Shown here in pieces: positions 4,111 through 64,000 of a stretch of DNA of 64,000 bases. The DNA comes from Patescibacteria group bacterium (lineage in GTDB: Bacteria > Patescibacteriota > Microgenomatia > UBA8517), in contig JAOAEL010000007.1 in assembly GCA_026416845.1 (NCBI GenBank), positions 78-64,077 on the forward strand, read 5' to 3'. Below the pieces are notes generated by a model that worked only from the letters and a program-made list of their open reading frames with translations, was not told the DNA's origin and did not search any database. Position 1 is the stretch's first letter. Each line of letters begins with the position of its first letter. The translations under genes were made by a program, and so were the position numbers.

Positions 4111-5634
4111 CTAAAAGCCGGGAAAGTAATCTGTTTTTATTTGTTTATTTGGTATGCCGATTTTGGCAAGCAGGTTTTTATAAGAATCAACCATCGCGCT
4201 TGGGCCTGATAAATAATATGTTTGCTCTTTATGGTTTTTTAAATATTTTTTGATTATTTCTTCGTTTAAGTATCCTACTTCTCCCTTCCAGTTTGGGGAA
4301 ACCAAATCTTTGTTTGTAAGCAAGTAAATTGTTTTCAATCCTAATTTTTTGTTTGCTTGGTCTAGCACATTTTTGTATGCTATGTCGTTTATTGTATTGT
4401 TTGCGTAAAAAAGAGTGATTGGTCTTTTTTCTTTGACGTTGGTAAGATATCTGATCATACTTATAAAAGGCGTGATTCCTATCCCGCCCGCGATGAAAAC
4501 CAGAGGTTTATTGATGTCTTTTGGCATTACAAAATCACCGCCTAAATTTCCTGCCAATACTTTGTCGTTGGCTCTTAAATTAAAAATTGTATCTTTGAAG
4601 CTACTTCCTTTCGCATCCGCAAACTTTATTCCAAATCTTACTTTTGTGTCGGTTGGCGATGACGCAATAGTGAAGTACCTTCTATTCCCTCTTGTGTCGT
4701 TTGTGGTCGTATTAAGAGTTAGTTCCAGATATTGTCCGGGCAAAAATGTCAATTTTTTGTCTGGCTCAAAAACAAATTCGTAAGTGTTTCTGGCTATTTT
4801 TAGCTTTGTTTTAAAAGCAAGAATAGTTTTTTGTTTTGGACTTATCAAACACGAAAATACATTGCCAATTACTATTGCAAGCTCGGGAGATGAAAAAATT
4901 GGGCCAAAAGAAAATTGAAAGCTAAACAAAAATCCAACTACCGCTCCATATATTTTTCTTTGTAAATTTGTTGCAGGCATTGTCGAAGGTTCTGTAAGCA
5001 TTATTGTTCCCAGAAAGATTGTTGGCCATGAAATAACTACCTCATAAATTGATTTCACAATATCAATATTGTTTTTCAGGCTAAATAAACTGCTTGTCGC
5101 AAGCGTTGTTATAAAAAAAGCAAAGACCATGCCGGATTGTCTTATCTTTTTAACCACTAAAAATCCCAATATGGCAACAGGTATTGCAAGACTTGCGCTT
5201 CCTACCCACCATATAGAATTTCCGAAGCCAAAAATGCCAATTGTCAAAAGAGCGATTGCTACCGGATTGAATATATGACTGTTTTTTAGTTTAAAAATAT
5301 ATTTTGATAAGATAGCAATTGTACTTGCGATGATTGTTATTAAAATATCGCTTTGATAATTATCTGGCGGAGCAATAATCAAAAAAAGTATTAACGCGCT
5401 TATAAGCCATGAATCATTGTTTGTGGGAAGATTAGAAATTTTTTGACAAATTTTGTTTGAAATATAGCATGTTATGATTATTACTGACAAAGAAACAATA
5501 AGAGAAATTGCGTTTAAAGGGAGTATACCTAAAAATCCGTATGCTATTGATAATAAGGCAATCGCACAAAGCGCGTAAACAGTGATTTTATACATTGTGA
5601 TGTTATTTAAATATGTGTCGATTTTTTGTATCAT
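4111..5634 (-). CDS. Polytopic membrane protein with a C-terminal ferredoxin-NADP-reductase-like FAD/NAD(P)-binding oxidoreductase domain
   Basis: The N-terminal ~250 aa is highly hydrophobic with about eight predicted TM helices. The C-terminal half carries an RxYS-type FAD motif (RRYFTIASSP) and a GGxGxxP NAD(P) motif (AGGIGITPF). Confidence 0.6.
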   Translation of the reverse strand: MIQKIDTYLNNITMYKITVYALCAIALLSIAYGFLGILPLNAISLIVSLSVIIITCYISNKICQKISNLPTNNDSWLISALILFLIIAPPDNYQSDILITIIASTIAILSKYIFKLKNSHIFNPVAIALLTIGIFGFGNSIWWVGSASLAIPVAILGFLVVKKIRQSGMVFAFFITTLATSSLFSLKNNIDIVKSIYEVVISWPTIFLGTIMLTEPSTMPATNLQRKIYGAVVGFLFSFQFSFGPIFSSPELAIVIGNVFSCLISPKQKTILAFKTKLKIARNTYEFVFEPDKKLTFLPGQYLELTLNTTTNDTRGNRRYFTIASSPTDTKVRFGIKFADAKGSSFKDTIFNLRANDKVLAGNLGGDFVMPKDINKPLVFIAGGIGITPFISMIRYLTNVKEKRPITLFYANNTINDIAYKNVLDQANKKLGLKTIYLLTNKDLVSPNWKGEVGYLNEEIIKKYLKNHKEQTYYLSGPSAMVDSYKNLLAKIGIPNKQIKTDYFPGF

Positions 5635-52408: not shown

Positions 52409-52801
52409 TCAATTTGAAAGATATTTTCGAGTTTCGCGAAGGCGAGCGGGTATTTGTGTAAGCCTTGTTTTGTGCGTTAAAAATAAAGCTAATGCAATAC
52501 TACCTAGTCCCAGTCCAAGAGTGCCTTTGTATGTTTCTTCAAACACATTAATTGCAAGTTGTTTAGCTGTTGCTAAATTTTGATTTTCTTCACTTGTTAT
52601 GTTTTGACTTGCTTGTAGGAAATTTTTGTGTTTGAATCTAGCAATTGTGCTATGTGTTGAATAAGCGGTAACACAAAGCAAAACTATGAGAGTTGGCATT
52701 GTGGCGGCGCACAAAAGATATAGCTTTTGTCTTTCACACTTGGCCACATTATGCATTATTTCTTTTGACAAATTTTCGCTGATGGCGTCTTTTATCTTCA
52801 T
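52409..52801 (-). CDS. Putative membrane anti-sigma factor
   Basis: Small single-TM protein whose start overlaps the stop of the ECF sigma gene by 4 nt. Confidence 0.35.
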   Translation of the reverse strand: MKIKDAISENLSKEIMHNVAKCERQKLYLLCAATMPTLIVLLCVTAYSTHSTIARFKHKNFLQASQNITSEENQNLATAKQLAINVFEETYKGTLGLGLGSIALALFLTHKTRLTQIPARLRETRKYLSN

Positions 52802-53373
52802 AAAAGTTTCATTCTAAGATAGTATTTGCCTCTGTGAATTCTGGTTCTAATTGTGTTTATTGGCAAATTCATGGCAGTTGCAATTTTGGCATAAGACATA
52901 TTTTCTATATAAAATTCTCTAAGAGGTTTTTTGTACATTTCTGGCAGTTTTGACAAAGCTTTGATTAATCTTTTGATTTCTTCCATGTGAATAAGTTTAT
53001 CAAGCATTGATTCTTCAGATGTGGGGACATGGTTGGACAGTGCTACCAATTTCTTTTCTTTTTTGATGATATCATAGGCTGTATTTGTCATGATTTTGTA
53101 TATCCAAGGACGAAATGACCTTGTTTCATCGAACTTAGCTAAATTTTTATATGCCTTGACAAATGCGTCTTGAACGGCATCTTTGGCAAGTTCATCATCT
53201 TGTAGGATTATTTTTGCTTTTCTAAAAAGAGGCTGTTGATATTTTTTTACTAAAGCTTCAAAAGATTTAAGATCTCCGTTTTTGCTTCTTGTTACAAGTA
53301 AAATATCGTCAACCAAAGAAAATTCATCCTTCATACTCTTAAATACGATTATCTTGTTAAAAAGTTTCAGCAT
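52798..53373 (-). CDS. RNA polymerase sigma-70 factor, ECF subfamily
   Basis: Sigma region 2 (FEALVKKYQQPLF...DAVQDAFVKAY) and a region 4 HTH at the C-terminus. Confidence 0.8.
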   Translation of the reverse strand: MLKLFNKIIVFKSMKDEFSLVDDILLVTRSKNGDLKSFEALVKKYQQPLFRKAKIILQDDELAKDAVQDAFVKAYKNLAKFDETRSFRPWIYKIMTNTAYDIIKKEKKLVALSNHVPTSEESMLDKLIHMEEIKRLIKALSKLPEMYKKPLREFYIENMSYAKIATAMNLPINTIRTRIHRGKYYLRMKLL

Positions 53374-53518
53374 ATCCTGTTTTTACTTTATAACATAAAT
53401 AACATAATTGGCCACGTTTAAACTTGCCGTTGACAAACTCAAATGAAGCGGATTAGGATTAGTCAAGAATTTGGTTCTAGTTCAGAATAGTTCAAATTTA
53501 GACGGGGAGGTGAATTTG

Positions 53519-53695
53519 ATGAAATTTTATAGTGTTCAAATCAGAGAGTCGGTAGAAGTTCCAGACGATCAAGTGGAAGTGGTTACTATGAAAAATGGTA
53601 AGCTGGCGGCTAAAGCAAAAACCACTCATAATGGTCGTGAACTTAAGCTTTTTAAAATCTTAAGCAAAGAGGATGCCGCTCGCCTAAAGAAATAA
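53519..53695 (+). CDS. Small hypothetical protein of about 58 aa
   Basis: A strong SD (GGGGAGGTG) lies 7 nt upstream of an internal ATG. The annotated longer ORF (53471) is probably an over-extension. Confidence 0.35.
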   Translation: MKFYSVQIRESVEVPDDQVEVVTMKNGKLAAKAKTTHNGRELKLFKILSKEDAARLKK

Positions 53696-53760
53696 TAGTT
53701 AGATTTTTTGATCTAAAAATTGCAAAAATTTTCTAGTTTTTAGACTTTTAACTTTAAAAC

Positions 53761-53787
53761 AAAGATTACCTTTAAGTGGTAGTCTTT
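53761..53787. promoter_or_regulatory. Imperfect palindrome AAAGATTACC-N7-GGTAGTCTTT just upstream of the COG0523 GTPase gene; candidate metalloregulator operator
   Basis: Nine of ten positions are complementary between the arms. It sits 25-50 nt upstream of the likely ATG (53813) of a Zur-regulon-type gene. Confidence 0.3.
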
Positions 53788-54712
53788 GTTTGGTTTAACC
53801 ATATCTAAGTTTATGATTCCCGCTATTTTGATTACTGGTTTCTTGGGTAGTGGCAAAACTACTTTTGTGAATTATTTGCTTGCTAAGTACCCCAATATCA
53901 AGTTTTCTGTAATCTTAAACGAGTTTGGAGACATTAAATTAGAAAGCCAGTTTATCAAGTCTCATAAAAAAGATGTTATAGAACTTGCCAACGGGTGTAT
54001 GTGTTGTATAGCCAAAAGCGATGTCCCTAGAGTGATTGGTTTGATTCTGGAGAATTCTCCCCAGACAGAGTATTTGCTTATTGAAGCTTCAGGACTTTCA
54101 GATCCTGATCCAATACATGAATCCTTTAATGATCCGCGTGTTTTTGGCAAAGTTTTTCTTGCTAAAGTTGTTTGCATTGTTGACGCTTTGAATTTTTTGG
54201 AGATGAAAAATACTCACCCTACGATTATGGCTCAACTTTCTGATGCCGACTTGGCAGTTATATCAAAAGTCAAAGAAGCAGGAATTGAGAGATCTAATCA
54301 GATACAAAATTTAATTAAAAATCTCATGCCGCTTACTCGTGTAGTGTTGTTTGATGATTCATTTGATTCATCGGAGTTATTCGCCGTCAAAGCAAATTCT
54401 TTGTCAGATGATTATGAAAAAGACAAGAATGATCATCACCATGTGCATGAAAAGTTTAAGGAGTATTGGTTTGTTAGCAGTAATTCTTATTCTCGCAAGG
54501 ATATTGAGGATGCATATAAAAATTTGCCTGAATCAGTCTTGCGTTCAAAAGGTATTGTAGTCTCAAGAGATGGTAAGAAAATTTTGATTCAATATGTAAA
54601 AGGCAAGCTTGAGTTATTGGAAGCAAGCTGGAGTGAAGATGAAGAAAAGAAGACTCAAATACTTTTTATTGGCAAGGATTTTGATGAAAAAGAGATGGAA
54701 AAACTTTTTTGA
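53786..54712 (+). CDS. COG0523 G3E-family metallochaperone GTPase (CobW/ZigA/YeiR-like)
   Basis: GFLGSGKTT P-loop and a CMCC metal-binding motif. The likely true start is ATG at 53813. Confidence 0.75.
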   Translation: MFGLTISKFMIPAILITGFLGSGKTTFVNYLLAKYPNIKFSVILNEFGDIKLESQFIKSHKKDVIELANGCMCCIAKSDVPRVIGLILENSPQTEYLLIEASGLSDPDPIHESFNDPRVFGKVFLAKVVCIVDALNFLEMKNTHPTIMAQLSDADLAVISKVKEAGIERSNQIQNLIKNLMPLTRVVLFDDSFDSSELFAVKANSLSDDYEKDKNDHHHVHEKFKEYWFVSSNSYSRKDIEDAYKNLPESVLRSKGIVVSRDGKKILIQYVKGKLELLEASWSEDEEKKTQILFIGKDFDEKEMEKLF

Positions 54713-54779
54713 TTTCTTTGGAAGCTTCAAAGTTTAAGCAAATCAACATTTTTTTGTTGTTATGTTTTGGTCTTGAATT

Positions 54780-54795
54780 TTGCAACTGAGTTGCA
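54780..54795. promoter_or_regulatory. Inverted repeat TTGCAAC-TGA-GTTGCA upstream of the Fur-family gene; candidate autoregulatory operator
   Basis: Arms of 6-7 nt with a 3-nt spacer, about 24 nt upstream of the probable ATG at 54819. Confidence 0.3.
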
Positions 54796-55199
54796 TAAAA
54801 TGTTGTTTAGTTTATTGTATGAAAAGAAGTACTCCAGTTCGAAATAAGATTTTAAAACTGCTACGAGTGTGTAAATATCCACTTTCTGTTCCGGAAATTA
54901 ATAAAAAAGTAAAAGCAAACAAAACTACTATTTATAGGCAAATAGAATCCATGATCAAGGAAGGTATTTTGTTTAAATTTGATTTTGGGGATGGTGTGGT
55001 TCGTTATGAATCTGCTTCTAATGGCCATCATCATCATTTGATTTGTAATAATTGTGGAGAGATAGAAGGTGTAGTTCTTGATGACGATTTGACGAGAGAA
55101 GAAAAACTGATCTTTGAGAAAAGAAACTTTTTGGTCACAAGTCATATGCTTGAATTTTTTGGTTTCTGTAAAAATTGTCAGAGTGACACTAAAAGTTAA
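54780..55199 (+). CDS. zur: Fur-family transcriptional regulator (Zur-like)
   Basis: HTH region (PLSVPEINKKV...TIYRQIESMIKEGIL) plus HHHH and CNNCG metal sites. The real start is likely the ATG at 54819. Confidence 0.7.
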   Translation: MQLSCIKCCLVYCMKRSTPVRNKILKLLRVCKYPLSVPEINKKVKANKTTIYRQIESMIKEGILFKFDFGDGVVRYESASNGHHHHLICNNCGEIEGVVLDDDLTREEKLIFEKRNFLVTSHMLEFFGFCKNCQSDTKS

Positions 55200-55207
55200 T
55201 TTGTAAA

Positions 55208-56167
55208 ATGAGAATTGCTTTTGTAGGCAAAGGAGGAAGTGGCAAAAGTGCTTTATCTGCGCTTTTTGTAACTTATTTGTCAAACAAGTATCCAGAAAAA
55301 AATGTTTATGCGGTTGATGCAGATTTAAATATACATTTGCCAAGATATCTTGGTTTTAAGTTAAAGTCAAAAAATTTTACCTACTTATCTGATTCCAGAA
55401 GCATGCAGGATATAAGAAATTATTTAATAAATAAGAACACACGCATAAAACACGTTGATCATTTTAGAAAAACTACACCTCCTGCGATTGGTTCTAATAT
55501 TGTTGATTTAGCTGACAAGAATAACTACATATTTAAAAATTATGCCTTGAATCGAAAGAATATTTTCTTAAGTGTAGTGGGGACATATTCTAAAGGAAAA
55601 ATTGGGCAGAGTTGTTATCATGATCATTTGTCTATATTTGAAAACATACTATCGCATTCTTTGGATAGAAATTCATACTTGGTTGCTGATATGGTAGCTG
55701 GGATTGATGCTTTTTCTGGTAGTTTGTATGCGCAATTTGATATTTTGATTGTGGTGGTTGAACCAAGTAGAGCTTCTTTTGAAGTTTTTGATCAGTATTT
55801 AGATTTGGCTAAAGAAGCTGATATTCAAGATTTAATCAGAGTTGTTGGCAATAAAGCAAGAAGCGATGATGATGTGAAATATATTTTAAAATTAATTCCT
55901 AAAAAGTATTTGCTTGGAGTGTTTAGTTATTCAAAGCATGTAGAAAATGTAGATCGAGGAATTGAGAATTTAGATCTAAATAAATTAGAAAAAAACGATT
56001 TTGATGTTTTAGCTAATATAGATGCCTATATAAATAAGATTGTAGTTGATGAAAATTCAAGACTTCAAAGATTGTATGATGTGCATAGGAAATATGTTTC
56101 TCAAGATTACGTGTTGAAAAGATATGGAGACTTGACTTCACAAATAGATAATAATTTTAAGTTTTAA
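55208..56167 (+). CDS. CooC/MinD-family P-loop ATPase (metal-insertion accessory ATPase-like)
   Basis: Deviant Walker A (AFVGKGGSGKSAL), a CooC-like AVDADLN motif and a Cys-containing segment (GQSCYHDH). Confidence 0.6.
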   Translation: MRIAFVGKGGSGKSALSALFVTYLSNKYPEKNVYAVDADLNIHLPRYLGFKLKSKNFTYLSDSRSMQDIRNYLINKNTRIKHVDHFRKTTPPAIGSNIVDLADKNNYIFKNYALNRKNIFLSVVGTYSKGKIGQSCYHDHLSIFENILSHSLDRNSYLVADMVAGIDAFSGSLYAQFDILIVVVEPSRASFEVFDQYLDLAKEADIQDLIRVVGNKARSDDDVKYILKLIPKKYLLGVFSYSKHVENVDRGIENLDLNKLEKNDFDVLANIDAYINKIVVDENSRLQRLYDVHRKYVSQDYVLKRYGDLTSQIDNNFKF

Positions 56168-56172
56168 TATTT

Positions 56173-57600
56173 ATGAAATCTCCCGAGTTTGGTATTCACC
56201 ATAAAATGGTTTTTAGTGGTCAAGATGCTTTAATTAATTACTTTAATCCTGAGAGTCATCCACCGATTCCTTTAGTTGAGATTCCTAATGATTTGAATCC
56301 TTATTGCGAAGATAGAGTTCGTGTTTTTGGCAAGATAATGTCAGCCACTCCTCTTGCGAATGTTAAATGCTTGCCAGCTTACCATATGCTCGAACAAGCG
56401 TTAAAAGCAGGTAAACTTGCGAATATTGAGAGAATATATGAAAGTTCATCTGGGAATACTGCCTTTTCACTTACTGTAATTGCTCGCGCCTTGGGAATTG
56501 ATGATGTGAATATTTTTGTTTCTAGTTCAATTTCGCCTGAAAAATTAGCTTTTCTAAAACTTCTAGGCATAACTGTGATTGTAAACCAAGAGCCAATGTG
56601 TCCAGACCCAGAAGATCCAGAAAGCGGAATTAACAAGGCTAAAAATTACGCAATGCAGTTTCAAGGTTATTGCCCTTCTCAATATGATAATCCTATGAAT
56701 CCAGATGCGCATTATAGATGGACTGGCCCCCAAATATTTTGGCAGTTGGATGGCAATCTTCAAATATACGCTGCCACACTAGGCACTACTGGAACTATTT
56801 TAGGGAGTGGAAGGTTTCTCAAGGAACACTTGCCTAATTTAAAAGTAGTAGGTGTTGCAAGCGCTGAGGATAAAGTTCGACTGGGTCCTAGATCTAAAAA
56901 TTCTCTTAAAGAAATTGGTTTCCCTTGGCAAGAATTTGTTGATGTTGTTGTGGAAGTTGAAGACAAAGAAGCTTATGAATTAAGTTTAAAGTTGTTCCAA
57001 AGAGGGTTTATGGCTGGGCCTAGTTCAGGATTTAATTTAGCTGGTTTATATCGATACATAGAGGGGATAAAGCGTGATGGCAGTCTTGATTCTTTTAGGA
57101 ATTCTAGTGGCGAGATAGTTTGCGTGTGTATATTTCCGGATGGACCTTTACCTTACTTAAATTCTTATCAGACCAACGTTTCTAGTGAATTAATGTCTAA
57201 AGTGCTAAATGAGCATTTATTAAAGTCGGAATTATTGAAAGCTGAAATTCTCACTGATAGAGGTTTATATCCAGCTAATGTATTTGAGCTTTTGCAATCT
57301 GACAGAAATGTTGAAATATGGGATATTCGCAAAGAAATAGATTATGAAAGATTTAGAATACAAGGAGCAAAAAGAATAGATGTTGAATTAATTGAAAGTA
57401 TGACAGACGAAAAAATTGGCTATTTAACAAGAGAAAATATTTATGTTATTGTGGTCGATTGTGGGTTGGCAGATTTTAGTTATTCTGGAGTTTTAGCTTC
57501 AATGATTTTCAGAAAAGGAATAAACGCCTTTTATATGATAGGGGGGATGGATGATTGGTCAAAAGCTGGTTTTCCTGTAGATAGAGGGTATTTTAAGTAA
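56173..57600 (+). CDS. PLP-dependent cysteine synthase/CBS-family enzyme fused to a C-terminal rhodanese domain
   Basis: The N-terminal ~330 aa match O-acetylserine sulfhydrylase motifs (PLVEIPN, lysine in NVKCLP, SSSGNTAFSL, GTTGTILG). The C-terminal ~110 aa has rhodanese topology with an active-site-like Cys (VVDCGLADFS). Confidence 0.65.
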   Translation: MKSPEFGIHHKMVFSGQDALINYFNPESHPPIPLVEIPNDLNPYCEDRVRVFGKIMSATPLANVKCLPAYHMLEQALKAGKLANIERIYESSSGNTAFSLTVIARALGIDDVNIFVSSSISPEKLAFLKLLGITVIVNQEPMCPDPEDPESGINKAKNYAMQFQGYCPSQYDNPMNPDAHYRWTGPQIFWQLDGNLQIYAATLGTTGTILGSGRFLKEHLPNLKVVGVASAEDKVRLGPRSKNSLKEIGFPWQEFVDVVVEVEDKEAYELSLKLFQRGFMAGPSSGFNLAGLYRYIEGIKRDGSLDSFRNSSGEIVCVCIFPDGPLPYLNSYQTNVSSELMSKVLNEHLLKSELLKAEILTDRGLYPANVFELLQSDRNVEIWDIRKEIDYERFRIQGAKRIDVELIESMTDEKIGYLTRENIYVIVVDCGLADFSYSGVLASMIFRKGINAFYMIGGMDDWSKAGFPVDRGYFK

Positions 57601-58029: not shown

Positions 58030-59355
58030 TTGAGGCATTATTTTAATTGCATTTATTTTTTGTGTTTTAAAATTTCAAAATATATGAAAAAACTATTTTT
58101 AATTGCAGTTTTGTTTATCACTTTTTCTACCTTATCTTTTGGAACAATCAAGGCTCAAGAAAATAATCAAGCTTCAGACGAAGAACAATTACAACAATTA
58201 ATGGATGAGCAGATGCGACAGCAATTACCTCCACCTCCTAAAGAAGAAATTTTTAGAGCAAGAGTTGATGAAATTGTTGAGGAAGGCAATCGTGATATAG
58301 GTGGATATCAAAATATGTTTCAGAAAGTTAAGGTTCGCATTCTTGACGGAGCGGAAAAAGATTCTGTGCATGAGATTGAACATGGAGGGGCATTTAGAAT
58401 TACTGACCAGCAGAAGGTAAAAGCTGGCGATAATGTGGTTTTGCTAAAGTATACTCCGCCAGGAAGTGAATCGCAGTATCACATCGTAGATAAGTATAGG
58501 CTTGATGTTTTGTATGTTTTGTTGTTTGCTTTTTTTGTACTCATATTTACATTTAGTCGTTGGAAAGGAATTGGTTCGTTTTTGGGACTAATTCTTAGCT
58601 TTGTCATAATAATAAAATATATGGTGCCTCAAATAGTTGCGGGGACAGATCCTTTGCAGGTCAGCATCATATCCTCACTTATCATAATGACTACAACTAT
58701 TTATTTAGCTCATGGTTTTTCCAAACAAACAAGCGTTGCTCTTTTAGGTACTGCAATTAGTTTAGTTTTGACAGGTTTATTATCTATACTTATAGTTGAT
58801 CTTGCCAACCTTTCGGGTCTTGGAAGCGATGATGCGTATTCTTTGAGGCTTGGACAAACTGCTGATATAAATTTTAAAGGCTTGCTACTTGCTGGAATGA
58901 TAATTGGTGTTCTTGGCGTTTTAGATGATATTACCACTAGTTTATCCGCTTCTGTTTTTGAGGTGGCGAGAGCCAATCCAAAACAAAAATTTAAAGATCT
59001 TGTCGCAAGTGGCTTAAGAGTTGGGAGAGAACATGTGGCTTCTTTGGTGAATACTTTAATTTTGGCTTATGCAGGTTCCTCTTTGCCTATTCTTTTATTT
59101 ATTGTAATAAATCCGAACAATATTCCCCTTTGGGCTATTGTGAATAGCGAGCTTATTACTGAAGAAATTGTCAGGATGCTTTCTGGTTCGATTGGTCTTT
59201 TGACGGCAGTGCCTATCACAGTTTTACTTGCAGCAAAATTTGCGTCCAGAGAAACTCAGATTTCTGCTTTGGGTGATTTCAGAGCAAACAGCGAAGCAAG
59301 AGTTCGCTCTCGTGCTTCAAGTAAAAAAACTTTGCCAAAACCAAGGGCAAAATGA
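58030..59355 (+). CDS. Polytopic membrane protein, YibE/F-like
   Basis: Signal/anchor, a ~130-aa extracytoplasmic domain, then about 7 TM helices. The start is probably at 58084. Confidence 0.45.
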   Translation: MRHYFNCIYFLCFKISKYMKKLFLIAVLFITFSTLSFGTIKAQENNQASDEEQLQQLMDEQMRQQLPPPPKEEIFRARVDEIVEEGNRDIGGYQNMFQKVKVRILDGAEKDSVHEIEHGGAFRITDQQKVKAGDNVVLLKYTPPGSESQYHIVDKYRLDVLYVLLFAFFVLIFTFSRWKGIGSFLGLILSFVIIIKYMVPQIVAGTDPLQVSIISSLIIMTTTIYLAHGFSKQTSVALLGTAISLVLTGLLSILIVDLANLSGLGSDDAYSLRLGQTADINFKGLLLAGMIIGVLGVLDDITTSLSASVFEVARANPKQKFKDLVASGLRVGREHVASLVNTLILAYAGSSLPILLFIVINPNNIPLWAIVNSELITEEIVRMLSGSIGLLTAVPITVLLAAKFASRETQISALGDFRANSEARVRSRASSKKTLPKPRAK

Positions 59356-61904: not shown

Positions 61905-64000
61905 GCCTTTTAGTTCCTAACTTTCGATGCACTCAGTTGGTCCGATTGCCTTTTAGTTCCTAACTTTCGATGTGCCACCTCTATCACTAAGCCTTTTAGT
62001 TCCTAACTTTCGATGTAGCAAGAAACACATTTGTGCCTTTTAGTTCCTAACTTTCGATGCCTTGCTCCACTACCGGGGCCTTTTAGTTCCTAACTTTCGA
62101 TGATCCACAAACTCTTCACCGCCTTTTAGTTCCTAACTTTCGATGTTAGCCCCCCTGATTAGATGCCTTTTAGTTCCTAACTTTCGATGTTGAGGTGAAA
62201 GGATTGGCGCCTTTTAGTTCCTAACTTTCGATGCTAAACGAAGGCTTGGACGCCTTTTAGTTCCTAACTTTCGATGTTAATTTTTTCAATTCCTTGCCTT
62301 TTAGTTCCTAACTTTCGATGTCCAGCCACCTCCGGGCACGCCTTTTAGTTCCTAACTTTCGATGTTGGTGATACTGGAAACAAGCCTTTTAGTTCCTAAC
62401 TTTCGATGACTGTTTCACCAAGCCAAAGCCTTTTAGTTCCTAACTTTCGATGCAATTCAAGCAGATGCCTGCCTTTTAGTTCCTAACTTTCGATGCACCT
62501 GCTATGATGACCTGCCTTTTAGTTCCTAACTTTCGATGACAATCAAAGGAGGGTGGGGCCTTTTAGTTCCTAACTTTCGATGTTTCCAACTTTTTCTGCT
62601 CGCCTTTTAGTTCCTAACTTTCGATGAGGAACGTACCCTATGGTAGCCTTTTAGTTCCTAACTTTCGATGTGTACGACTTTGAGGATAGCCTTTTAGTTC
62701 CTAACTTTCGATGTTTTTCATAGCGCCTCCTCGCCTTTTAGTTCCTAACTTTCGATGTATGTCTTATAATCACATGCCTTTTAGTTCCTAACTTTCGATG
62801 AGTGCAAACCCAGTAGGAAGCCTTTTAGTTCCTAACTTTCGATGCCTTTGGGACAGTGACAGGCCTTTTAGTTCCTAACTTTCGATGGACATTTTAGTTG
62901 CGGAGGCCTTTTAGTTCCTAACTTTCGATGAAAAGGAGGGGAACTTACCGCCTTTTAGTTCCTAACTTTCGATGTTAGCGATAATCTCCGCTGCCTTTTA
63001 GTTCCTAACTTTCGATGAAATGCTCAGTGACAGTTTAGCCTTTTAGTTCCTAACTTTCGATGACTGGGTTTGATGGATTTTGCCTTTTAGTTCCTAACTT
63101 TCGATGTTAGCGATACTTTATACTGCCTTTTAGTTCCTAACTTTCGATGCCAACCAAATGAGTGTTTATGCCTTTTAGTTCCTAACTTTCGATGTTCAAC
63201 CAACCCTGCTTGAGCCTTTTAGTTCCTAACTTTCGATGGTCTCCCTCTTTTCCTCTAGCCTTTTAGTTCCTAACTTTCGATGTGCCGATTACTTTTACAA
63301 TGCCTTTTAGTTCCTAACTTTCGATGCAAGGCGGTTACCAATTAGCCTTTTAGTTCCTAACTTTCGATGCCCCGCAAACGCCACGATCGCCTTTTAGTTC
63401 CTAACTTTCGATGCAACGCCGCCGTGAAGGCGCCTTTTAGTTCCTAACTTTCGATGATATGAATTAGGGGCAATGCCTTTTAGTTCCTAACTTTCGATGT
63501 TGCCGTTCAGTTTCCAAGCCTTTTAGTTCCTAACTTTCGATGTGCCAACATTTTGAGTTTTGCCTTTTAGTTCCTAACTTTCGATGTTCTCTTATGTGGA
63601 CGAAAGCCTTTTAGTTCCTAACTTTCGATGGAATTGGAAAAAAATGTAAGCCTTTTAGTTCCTAACTTTCGATGCACTGGAGCAAGTGGTTCGCCTTTTA
63701 GTTCCTAACTTTCGATGAAAAGGCTTTTGAGGTAATGCCTTTTAGTTCCTAACTTTCGATGCTGAAAGAGCGGCAACAAGCCTTTTAGTTCCTAACTTTC
63801 GATGTGTGGGGAATTGACCCTAAGCCTTTTAGTTCCTAACTTTCGATGTGGCATACCATAATTAGTGCCTTTTAGTTCCTAACTTTCGATGTGATCCGAT
63901 TCTGACTAAGCCTTTTAGTTCCTAACTTTCGATGTATGTTTTCAAAAGGACAAGCCTTTTAGTTCCTAACTTTCGATGCTAATTTTGGTATGTCAAGAGC
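61905..64000. CRISPR. CRISPR array of at least 48 repeats of 25 nt (GCCTTTTAGTTCCTAACTTTCGATG) with 18-20-nt unique spacers; it continues past the window end
   Basis: I counted 48 occurrences of the repeat at a 43-44 nt period. Every spacer is different. Repeats are near-identical; one copy at 62035 has T5 instead of T4. No cas genes lie within 60 kb upstream. Confidence 0.9.

Follow-up and report, generated by a model that had tools for sequence, protein, structure and literature searches.

When a Fur-family metalloregulator is followed by an ATPase resembling CooC, the nickel-insertion protein of carbon monoxide (CO) dehydrogenase, the question arises of what such an ATPase could serve in an organism whose neighbouring genes encode no CO dehydrogenase. 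This arrangement is found in a stretch of 64,000 nucleotides (hereafter the window) from contig JAOAEL010000007.1 of a Patescibacteria group bacterium (Microgenomatia, UBA8517; assembly GCA_026416845.1), at 53.4–57.6 kb on the + strand. An earlier note, made from the letters of the window, had described a cluster of four genes, namely a small open reading frame (ORF), a COG0523 GTPase, the regulator and the ATPase, and had placed both nucleoside triphosphatases under one Zur-like regulator acting through two palindromic operators. Our analysis gave five genes instead of four, the overlooked fifth (56173–57600) encoding a pyridoxal-phosphate (PLP)-dependent enzyme fused to a rhodanese domain. 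The explanation that we favour, with somewhat better than even confidence for the whole of it, is that the genes for the regulator, the ATPase and the PLP/rhodanese enzyme (54819–57600) form a single operon repressed by its own Fur-family product, and that this operon answers metal starvation, probably of zinc, by making an aminopolycarboxylate chelator served by a dedicated metallochaperone. Both the metal and the role of the ATPase are inferred.

The proposed operon and its operator

The elements that carry this explanation are as follows.

54773–54801, + strand: promoter-like site of the fur operon (consensus scan)
54781–54795, no strand: operator, perfect 7-1-7 inverted repeat TGCAACTgAGTTGCA (matrix score, recurrence in related loci)
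54819–55199, + strand: Fur-family metalloregulator, 126 aa (PF01475, 3.7e-20)
55208–56167, + strand: CooC-like SIMIBI ATPase, 319 aa (CooC1 the best solved relative; weak PF01656 match)
56173–57600, + strand: PLP-dependent CysK-fold enzyme fused to a rhodanese domain, 475 aa (PF00291, 2.2e-39; PF00581, 2.2e-5)

The spacing of the three genes is operon-like, with 8 nt between fur and the ATPase gene and 5 nt between the latter and the PLP/rhodanese gene; the preceding COG0523 gene ends 106 nt before fur. The operator lies 24 nt 5' of the fur ATG (the start codon was picked from an alignment with homologues) and is built around the core TGCAA-N5-TTGCA. It fills the 17-nt spacer between a -35 hexamer TTGAAT (54773–54778) and a -10 hexamer TAAAAT (54796–54801) found by the consensus scan, a layout shared by two related loci, L087 and L088 (TTGACA-operator-TATGAT or TATAAA). 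In the window it is the sole exact match both to the full pattern and to the core.

We fetched 80 genome loci encoding relatives of the ATPase, compared their gene neighbours and added annotated contigs for three further homologues; linkage counts are given for the 28 distinct non-actinobacterial loci unless stated otherwise. In the high-GC actinobacterial loci neighbour clustering was swamped by spurious antisense ORFs, and a filter on the GC content of third codon positions (GC3) was used instead for two of them (L059 and L064). Just 5' of the Fur or the ATPase gene, related loci carry the consensus TGCAA[A/C]TnA[G/T]TTGCA, in which positions 6–7 and 9–10 are also conserved as a palindrome, as in Fur/Zur boxes of the n-1-n type. 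With a matrix built from the sites of other loci only, the window site being left out, the window operator scored 23.7 bits, compared with 11.5 for the next best position in the 64 kb and 17.2 for the best of 30 shuffles. Of the 28 loci, 19 had a site of at least 14 bits in the 600 nt preceding the ATPase, and across the 1.15 Mb of fetched loci hits at this level fell almost exclusively in these promoters. The exact core had 20 matches in 97 loci, all but one of them in promoters of this kind. The genes with the operator in their promoters in related loci include those for Fur, the ATPase, ZnuA, ZIP and nicotianamine-synthase (NAS) type proteins.

Several individual loci connect the operator with zinc-type genes. 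Two operators separate Fur from ZnuABC beside the pair of ATPase and PLP/rhodanese genes in L096, and the order in L097 is ZIP, Fur, operator, ATPase, PLP/rhodanese gene; both were fetched via the PLP enzyme, and the ATPase again stood directly upstream of it. In L088, a locus fetched via the small ORF, operators occur 5' of Fur-ZIP, of a nicotianamine-synthase-like gene, and of the small ORF and a YibE/F gene. As a separate observation on this patescibacterial locus, Fur, ZIP and the nicotianamine-synthase-like gene (PF03059) each stand behind the same operator (L088:2858–4788), and the last of them is a candidate for a second metallophore type in these bacteria.

Because it recurs and is conserved in related loci, we read this palindrome, the second of the two proposed in the earlier note, as a genuine operator; although unique in the 64 kb, it was found again in the relatives. 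TGCAACTgAGTTGCA is thus the predicted binding site of the adjacent Fur-family repressor, and the regulator is predicted to be autoregulated. The first palindrome did not recur in the window and is more likely a terminator (see below).

The ATPase and its PLP/rhodanese partner

The earlier suggestion of a CooC-like ATPase agreed with all comparisons made, and a firm grouping with MinD/ParA proteins, which the note had named as a refutation, was not found. Among solved structures phmmer placed CooC1 of Carboxydothermus hydrogenoformans (3kje) at 2.7e-13, ParA at 0.0037 and MinD at 0.11, and Foldseek with the AlphaFold model (pLDDT, predicted local distance difference test, 92.9) ranked CooC1 first at 7.2e-12, followed by ATPase-type HypB and then MinD. 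The NCBIfam MinD models gave 18 bits against cut-offs above 200. These three results rule out a MinD/ParA identity, and no MinC/MinE or ParB partner genes adjoin the ATPase in the window or in the annotated relatives.

Alignments of 27 (A1) and 62 (A2) members revealed a set of invariant motifs: the deviant Walker A GKGGxGK[ST] (GKGGSGKS in the window protein), DxD.N. (DADLN), KTTPP, VGTY, IGxxCYH, DMVAG.DAF (DMVAGIDAF), EP and NK. With CooC1, the nickel-insertion ATPase for CO dehydrogenase, the protein shares the SIMIBI fold, the Walker A motif, the switch motifs DxD and DMxAGxE/D and a putative metal motif at an equal position in the sequence, and CooC1 is its top match by both sequence and fold. 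In the phmmer alignment to 3kje the CooC residues QCYCRE are matched by SCYHDH, so that C136-Y137-H138 stands at the place of the Cys-x-Cys of CooC. This C-Y-H triad is invariant in A1 and A2 and is kept at about 33% identity in Actinobacteria and Chloroflexi; a pattern search over the 80 genome loci recovered it from the ATPase in 78 (as C-F-H in one of these) and gave no match in the other two. Beyond having Cys-Tyr-His instead of Cys-x-Cys, the window protein differs from CooC1 in its low identity (24%) and in being some 65 residues longer, owing to an insertion of about 60 aa that holds KTTPP and a conserved, helical (three-helix) C-terminal extension of about 70 aa. The genomic setting differs as well: there is no CO dehydrogenase nearby, and the partner of the ATPase is the PLP/rhodanese enzyme or a PF20704 protein, among zinc-type regulon genes.

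The family is large. A large protein collection yielded more than 1000 homologues, those with a name among the best matches being from Patescibacteria and DPANN archaea. When cluster representatives (50% identity) were searched exhaustively, 142 clusters reached E ≤ 1e-30; almost all are 310–330 aa long, and the family spans Patescibacteria, DPANN, Actinobacteria and Chloroflexi. Many homologues carry the Joint Genome Institute (JGI) name 'CO dehydrogenase maturation factor', a label that is almost certainly wrong for these organisms. As the earlier note had observed, the window offers no enzyme of this kind for the ATPase to serve: neither a CO dehydrogenase nor a hydrogenase was detected among the ORFs scanned against Pfam (the largest ones, together with those lying up to about 10 kb from the cluster). 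No CO dehydrogenase context was found in the relatives either, whose annotated neighbours were Fur, PLP/rhodanese or PF20704 genes. Pfam and NCBIfam hold no family specific to the ATPase, which also shows weak matches to PF10609, the class of the Mrp/NBP35 carriers. As two features that define CooC, the Cys-x-Cys motif and the CO dehydrogenase context, are missing, we assign the protein, on its sequence, to a distinct and uncharacterised CooC-like clade that is not CooC itself.

Rare members are fused to an S-adenosylmethionine (SAM)-dependent methyltransferase or a hydrolase of the haloacid dehalogenase (HAD) family (P0361, 575 aa; P0427, 562 aa), and have C-H-H (P0361) or C-F-H (P0427) at the C-Y-H position.

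For the PLP enzyme, the nearest solved structures by phmmer were 8h4h and 8h4q (3.9e-71, 243 bits), entered as 'aspergillomarasmine A synthetase' in apo form and with O-phosphoserine, whereas the next best, a cysteine synthase, reached 3.8e-27 and 98 bits. Foldseek with the model (pLDDT 90.7) aligned 8h4h at 1e-41 over 477 columns, covering both domains, compared with 3e-21 for the runner-up; none of CysK, CysM, SbnA and CBS came as close as this synthase, either by fold or by sequence (98 bits or less). Scores of the NCBIfam equivalogs were below their cut-offs (cysKM 143 against 344, cysK 122 against 351, cysM 121 against 394), and that of the SbnA model far below; together with the difference between 243 and 98 bits, this rules out an ordinary cysteine synthase. 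Invariant in the family alignment (A3) are K65 (the PLP lysine, in an NVK motif that aligns with NVK of 8h4h), S93-G94-N95, C143 and the rhodanese C430; the rhodanese domain has a GlpE-like active-site loop and aligns with active sulfurtransferases. By these comparisons the protein is a homologue of the fungal aspergillomarasmine A synthase, a cysteine-synthase-like PLP enzyme that turns O-phosphoserine and aspartate into toxin A and then aspergillomarasmine A (PMC12751119; bioRxiv 10.1101/2025.10.30.685158; PMC8319579); a related fungal enzyme, also with a rhodanese-like domain, takes alanine instead according to the literature on this synthase. The Aspergillus oryzae enzyme (8h4h, 8h4q) and the protein described here share the CysK-fold PLP domain, the C-terminal rhodanese-like domain and the aligned PLP lysine. 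The present family differs in being prokaryotic (Patescibacteria, DPANN), in its invariant Cys143, which has no counterpart in the fungal enzyme, and in always being paired with a P-loop ATPase, a subgroup having a PLP decarboxylase between both genes.

This pairing disagrees with the earlier picture of the ATPase as an orphan. In 23 of the 28 loci the ATPase gene has a PLP/rhodanese gene downstream of it in the same orientation, directly adjoining it in 15, often with overlapping stop and start codons, and separated from it in eight by a gene of the ornithine/diaminopimelate (Orn/DAP) decarboxylase fold (PF02784). A Fur-family gene, either co-oriented or divergent, is found no more than about 5 kb away in 19 loci. 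The gene pair is also kept in DPANN archaea (Aenigmarchaeota, Iainarchaeota). Since a distant myxobacterial PLP/rhodanese homologue (30% identity) has no ATPase nearby, the pairing is specific to the closer clade. In three of the 28 loci the place of the PLP/rhodanese gene is taken by that of a Cys/His protein of 130–170 aa (PF20704); in L035 and L041 this protein and the ATPase stand under the same operator without a PLP enzyme.

Two variants of the module were recorded in addition. In one (L012, L013, L014, L017, L019, L020, L022, L032, L059) the PF02784 PLP enzyme lies between the ATPase and a more divergent PLP/rhodanese protein (23–28% identity to the window copy), an arrangement that resembles the logic of an SbnA-like enzyme plus a decarboxylase in the synthesis of ethylenediamine disuccinate (EDDS) and staphyloferrin B. 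In the other, seen in Actinobacteria, Chloroflexi and a few Patescibacteria (L021, L035, L041, L049, L056–L079; e.g. L059:8005–8397), the C-Y-H ATPase is followed by the PF20704 protein, which has a conserved FQNCH motif and a C-terminal Cys. PF20704 is named 'NucS shadow ORF'; because the gene has the codon usage of a real gene (GC3 of 0.91 in Streptomyces) and is retained in several metagenome-assembled genomes of Patescibacteria, this label may be wrong.

Neighbouring genes and other features of the window

Around the operon the following features were annotated.

52798–53373, divergent from the cluster: extracytoplasmic function (ECF) sigma factor (Pfam scan)
53519–53695, + strand: conserved 58-aa protein (79 homologues, strong Shine-Dalgarno sequence, own promoter-like site)
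53712–53744 and 53757–53791, + strand: two stem-loops 3' of the small ORF (stem search, folding)
53813–54712, + strand: COG0523 (CobW/HypB/UreG-type) GTPase (PF02492, 2e-40; PF07683, 4.9e-12; GCMCC)
58084–59355, + strand: YibE/F-family membrane protein (PF07907, 2.5e-72)

The COG0523 protein was correctly recognised in the earlier note from its CMCC motif. It has the GTPase domain, CobW_C (PF07683), GCMCC and a His-rich linker (DHHHVHE), and shares this equipment, including a CxCC motif, with the COG0523 zinc metallochaperone GTPases (ZigA, YjiA/YeiR, CobW), although it reached none of the NCBIfam equivalog cut-offs, its highest score being that for CobW (121 bits against 332). From those GTPases it differs in that the window copy is not under the operator. 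Linkage of COG0523 to the ATPase was found in only 3 of the 80 related loci (L032, L059, L064); in the two Streptomyces loci, L059 and L064, the ATPase lies with a PF20704 gene between Fur-COG0523 and ZnuABC-Zur, and one of them also has PLP/rhodanese and decarboxylase genes. The COG0523 gene is a neighbour of the operon and not a conserved part of it, and the notion of two metal-insertion enzymes under one Zur-like regulator finds no support here, the GTPase gene being upstream of the operator promoter and devoid of an operator of its own.

The small ORF, divergent from the ECF sigma factor as previously described, is preceded by a strong Shine-Dalgarno sequence (GGGGAGGTG just 5' of the ATG) and by a promoter-like site (TTGACA-18-TAGGAT, 53430–53459). 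Its 79 homologues (44–79 aa, 60–91% identity), all named ones being from Patescibacteria, have leaders of about 60–90 nt. Searches of Pfam and NCBIfam returned no match for it, and it contains no Cys and one His; its identity as a zinc-independent ribosomal paralogue is therefore unsupported. Neither did the check for such paralogues that the earlier note had proposed find any among the scanned ORFs within about 10 kb of the cluster. Of the seven distinct contexts seen for the small ORF (the window and loci L087–L094), four, namely the window, L088, L091 and L092, have ZIP and/or YibE/F beside it, and a further one has rpsF-ssb-rpsR. The promoter spacer of the small ORF contains the operator in L087 and L088, but not in the window.

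The first palindrome proposed as an operator is a 14-bp stem (53757–53791) in which 13 of 14 positions are complementary, the odd pair being G-U in the + strand RNA. The spacer in which it lies (53696–53812, 117 nt) folds at -28.3 kcal/mol (z = -3.84). As an operator it was rejected: the window holds no second copy of its sequence, and unrelated hairpins occupy the same place in homologues of the small ORF, a strong one following the stop codon in L088 and L089. It is probably a terminator of the small ORF or an attenuator before COG0523; its tail, GUUUGGUUU, is only moderately rich in U, and the site was absent from the results of the consensus scan. Apart from two tRNAs, Rfam returned nothing over the 64 kb, and hence no riboswitch or other known RNA in the cluster.

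YibE/F genes lie beside the module or the operator in L011, L013, L016 (3061–4158, abutting the PLP gene), L088 (5191–6255) and L096 (9562–10119), and in L091 and L092 they occur close to a ZIP gene and the small ORF; in L088 the gene is 3' of the small ORF downstream of the operator. The protein may be a transporter for the metal or the chelator; a literature search on YibE gave nothing relevant. No site of at least 9 bits was found 5' of COG0523, the small ORF or YibE/F in the window, and in this genome these three are separate transcription units without the operator.

Two further features lie elsewhere in the window. A 507-aa ORF (4111–5634, - strand) joins an NqrB/RnfD-like membrane domain (PF03116) to an FNR-type NAD-binding domain (PF00175), an unusual pairing. 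At 61905–63978 (+ strand) there is an array resembling clustered regularly interspaced short palindromic repeats (CRISPR), with 48 identical copies of the 25-nt repeat GCCTTTTAGTTCCTAACTTTCGATG at 43–45 nt from start to start, and hence with spacers of just 18–20 nt; it reaches the end of the window, which is the end of the contig, and no cas gene was seen in the 2 kb preceding it. The short spacers recall, we assume, the CasY/Cas12d arrays of candidate phyla radiation (CPR) bacteria.

The probable metal, the proposed mechanism and rival explanations

The regulator has a HHHH motif and two CxxC pairs, all conserved among homologues, and its assignment to the Fur family, as well as that of the cluster to a Fur-family metal system, agrees with the first description. 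Its specificity is less plain from sequence comparison: in the PDB it matched Fur at 1e-16, Mycobacterium tuberculosis Zur at 6e-13 and Nur (3eyy) at 3.1e-7, the last at rank 16 behind Fur, Zur and PerR, and in NCBIfam it stayed under every equivalog cut-off (Fur 75 bits against 220, Zur 25 against 167). Zur regulons classically hold ZnuABC, ZIP, COG0523 and metallophore synthases, and there is precedent for metallophore clusters under Zur (PMC6103462). Because the regulon described here has this classic content, we consider zinc the probable metal, and since ZnuABC and ZIP are under this operator in relatives, it is reasonable to call the Zur-like regulon 'Zur-type' in a functional sense; the earlier designation thus stands for function, while the protein itself is nearer to Fur and the half-sites match the Nur box. 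The Zur-controlled metallophore clusters (EDDS of Amycolatopsis japonicum, coelibactin, pseudopaline/staphylopine) resemble the present system in having a Fur-family repressor with a 7-1-7 operator over the promoter and in the joint regulation of aminocarboxylate chelator synthesis with zinc uptake genes, to which the nicotianamine-synthase-like gene under the same operator in L088 may be added. The operator sequence (TGCAA-N5-TTGCA) and the synthase family are different, and we know of no CooC-like ATPase in those clusters.

In the mechanism that we propose, the metal-loaded repressor would sit on the 7-1-7 operator between -35 and -10 and block RNA polymerase, as its position and conservation suggest; at shortage of the metal, most likely zinc, it would leave and the operon would be transcribed. 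Judging from homology, the most likely reaction of the PLP enzyme would be alkylation of the amino group of aspartate or a comparable amino acid, with O-phosphoserine or O-acetylserine as the donor and an aminopolycarboxylate chelator of Zn, Ni or Co as the product; aspergillomarasmine A itself binds Zn2+, Co2+ and Ni2+ and no other common metal according to the literature. By analogy with CooC, the ATPase would most likely form an ATP-dependent dimer with a Cys2His2 metal site at the interface, built from two C-Y-H motifs, and could then move metal from the chelator or transport pathway to client proteins or back. The COG0523 protein, which would be a GTP-dependent metallochaperone, the 58-aa protein and YibE/F would be frequent neighbours of this regulon. 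A more specific version, in which the C-Y-H ATPase and the PLP/rhodanese enzyme make up a two-protein, ATP-driven machine for producing an aminopolycarboxylate chelator, which might contain sulfur, and for loading zinc or nickel onto it or taking the metal off, is offered as a tentative proposal that we hold with clearly less confidence than the operon as a whole.

Several points weigh against this explanation. We recognised neither an exporter nor an importer of metallophores; in the window the operator precedes no gene for a zinc transporter or for a zinc-independent ribosomal paralogue; and the archaeal copies of the gene pair have neither Fur nor the operator. The regulator scores nearer to Fur than to Zur, and no extra Cys ligand of the Zur type is conserved among its homologues. 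The half-sites and spacing of the operator match the box of the nickel-responsive Nur of Streptomyces coelicolor (tTGCaa-N5-ttGCAA, 6-5-6; PMC2691836), tTGCAActgagTTGCAt fitting 11 of 12 half-site positions. Known aspergillomarasmine A chemistry requires neither the invariant rhodanese Cys430 nor Cys143, a hint of sulfur transfer, and the rare fusions of the ATPase to a methyltransferase or HAD hydrolase would also fit a role in small-molecule synthesis. Metal binding by the ATPase and its contact with the PLP enzyme are, for their part, predictions.

Some of these points feed alternatives that we judged to be considerably less probable. The same architecture might serve nickel or cobalt, with a Nur-like repressor, a Ni/Co chelator and a nickel chaperone of the CooC type: the operator core corresponds to the Nur box, the closest folds to the ATPase (CooC and ATPase-type HypB) are nickel chaperones, and aspergillomarasmine A binds Ni2+ and Co2+ too. 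The regulator, however, is not particularly Nur-like, its similarity to Nur (3e-7) being exceeded by that to Fur and to Zur; the neighbours in the regulon comprise ZnuABC, ZIP and COG0523; neither a nickel enzyme nor a Nik transporter was seen among the scanned ORFs of the window or in the loci examined; and Cys2His2 is a typical zinc ligand set. We regard this alternative as unlikely, and slightly less probable still is a sulfur-mobilising or cysteine-persulfide system under an iron-sensing Fur, possibly feeding Fe-S assembly, in which the CysK-fold enzyme would turn the persulfide of its own rhodanese domain into cysteine or a persulfide and the ATPase would be a cluster or sulfur carrier like Mrp/NBP35. 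The invariance of Cys430 and Cys143, the likeness of the rhodanese domain to active sulfurtransferases, the closeness of the regulator to Fur and the weak PF10609 matches of the ATPase would suit such a system, but the PLP enzyme has 243 bits to aspergillomarasmine A synthase and 98 to any cysteine synthase, with CysK/CysM scores far under the cut-offs, the ATPase lacks the CxxC of the Mrp/NBP35 carriers, and the regulon neighbours are of the zinc type (ZnuABC, ZIP, COG0523, NAS), no Suf/Isc genes adjoining in the annotated related loci.

Another possible role for the ATPase, which we rate a little lower again, is that of a biosynthetic helper that uses ATP to supply or activate the substrate of the PLP enzyme and is no metallochaperone. 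Its tight and probably translationally coupled pairing with that enzyme and the rare fusions speak for this, and there is a precedent in staphyloferrin B synthesis, where the serine kinase SbnI supplies O-phosphoserine to SbnA, a dedicated supply within a metallophore cluster. Nevertheless, the protein has the features of dimeric switch ATPases of the MinD/CooC type and not of kinases, namely a deviant Walker A carrying the signature lysine, the switch motifs and the placement of the metal motif, and in L035 and L041 the ATPase occurs with PF20704 under the same operator where the PLP enzyme is absent. Least probable of all in our assessment is the model of the earlier note, a single Zur cluster with both enzymes co-regulated via two operators and the CooC-like protein as an orphan nickel-insertion factor. 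All genes do lie on one strand within 4 kb, and COG0523 is a classic member of Zur regulons; yet the first palindrome fits a terminator and has no second copy in the window, COG0523 has no upstream operator and is linked to the ATPase in 3 of 80 loci, and the ATPase has a conserved partner.

Under the metal-starvation explanation that we prefer, the parts belong to known superfamilies, and what is new is a clade of chaperone-like ATPases together with a prokaryotic synthase of the marasmine type in a Fur-family metal-starvation regulon. Literature searches on the ATPase family, on CooC-like proteins outside CO dehydrogenase, on the pairing of such an ATPase with a relative of aspergillomarasmine A synthase and on metallophores of Patescibacteria found nothing relevant, which is weak evidence given that subscription journals lay mostly outside the search. 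If the two-protein machine were real, Patescibacteria and DPANN archaea would gain their first metallophore pathway, and CO dehydrogenase would no longer be the only known client of CooC-type ATPases; in Actinobacteria this ATPase would have been put to use again, together with a small Cys/His protein (PF20704). The range of P-loop metallochaperones would extend beyond nickel if a CooC-like chaperone had a Cys2His2 site. Because aspergillomarasmine A and its analogues inhibit metallo-beta-lactamases (literature including PMC8319579), the prokaryotic relatives of its synthase are of practical interest. For uncultured lineages, the operator is a ready means of predicting the metal regulon. With their tiny genomes, Patescibacteria and DPANN archaea are regarded as scavengers for most of their needs; a conserved, regulated chelator operon would show that they make an investment of their own in metal acquisition.

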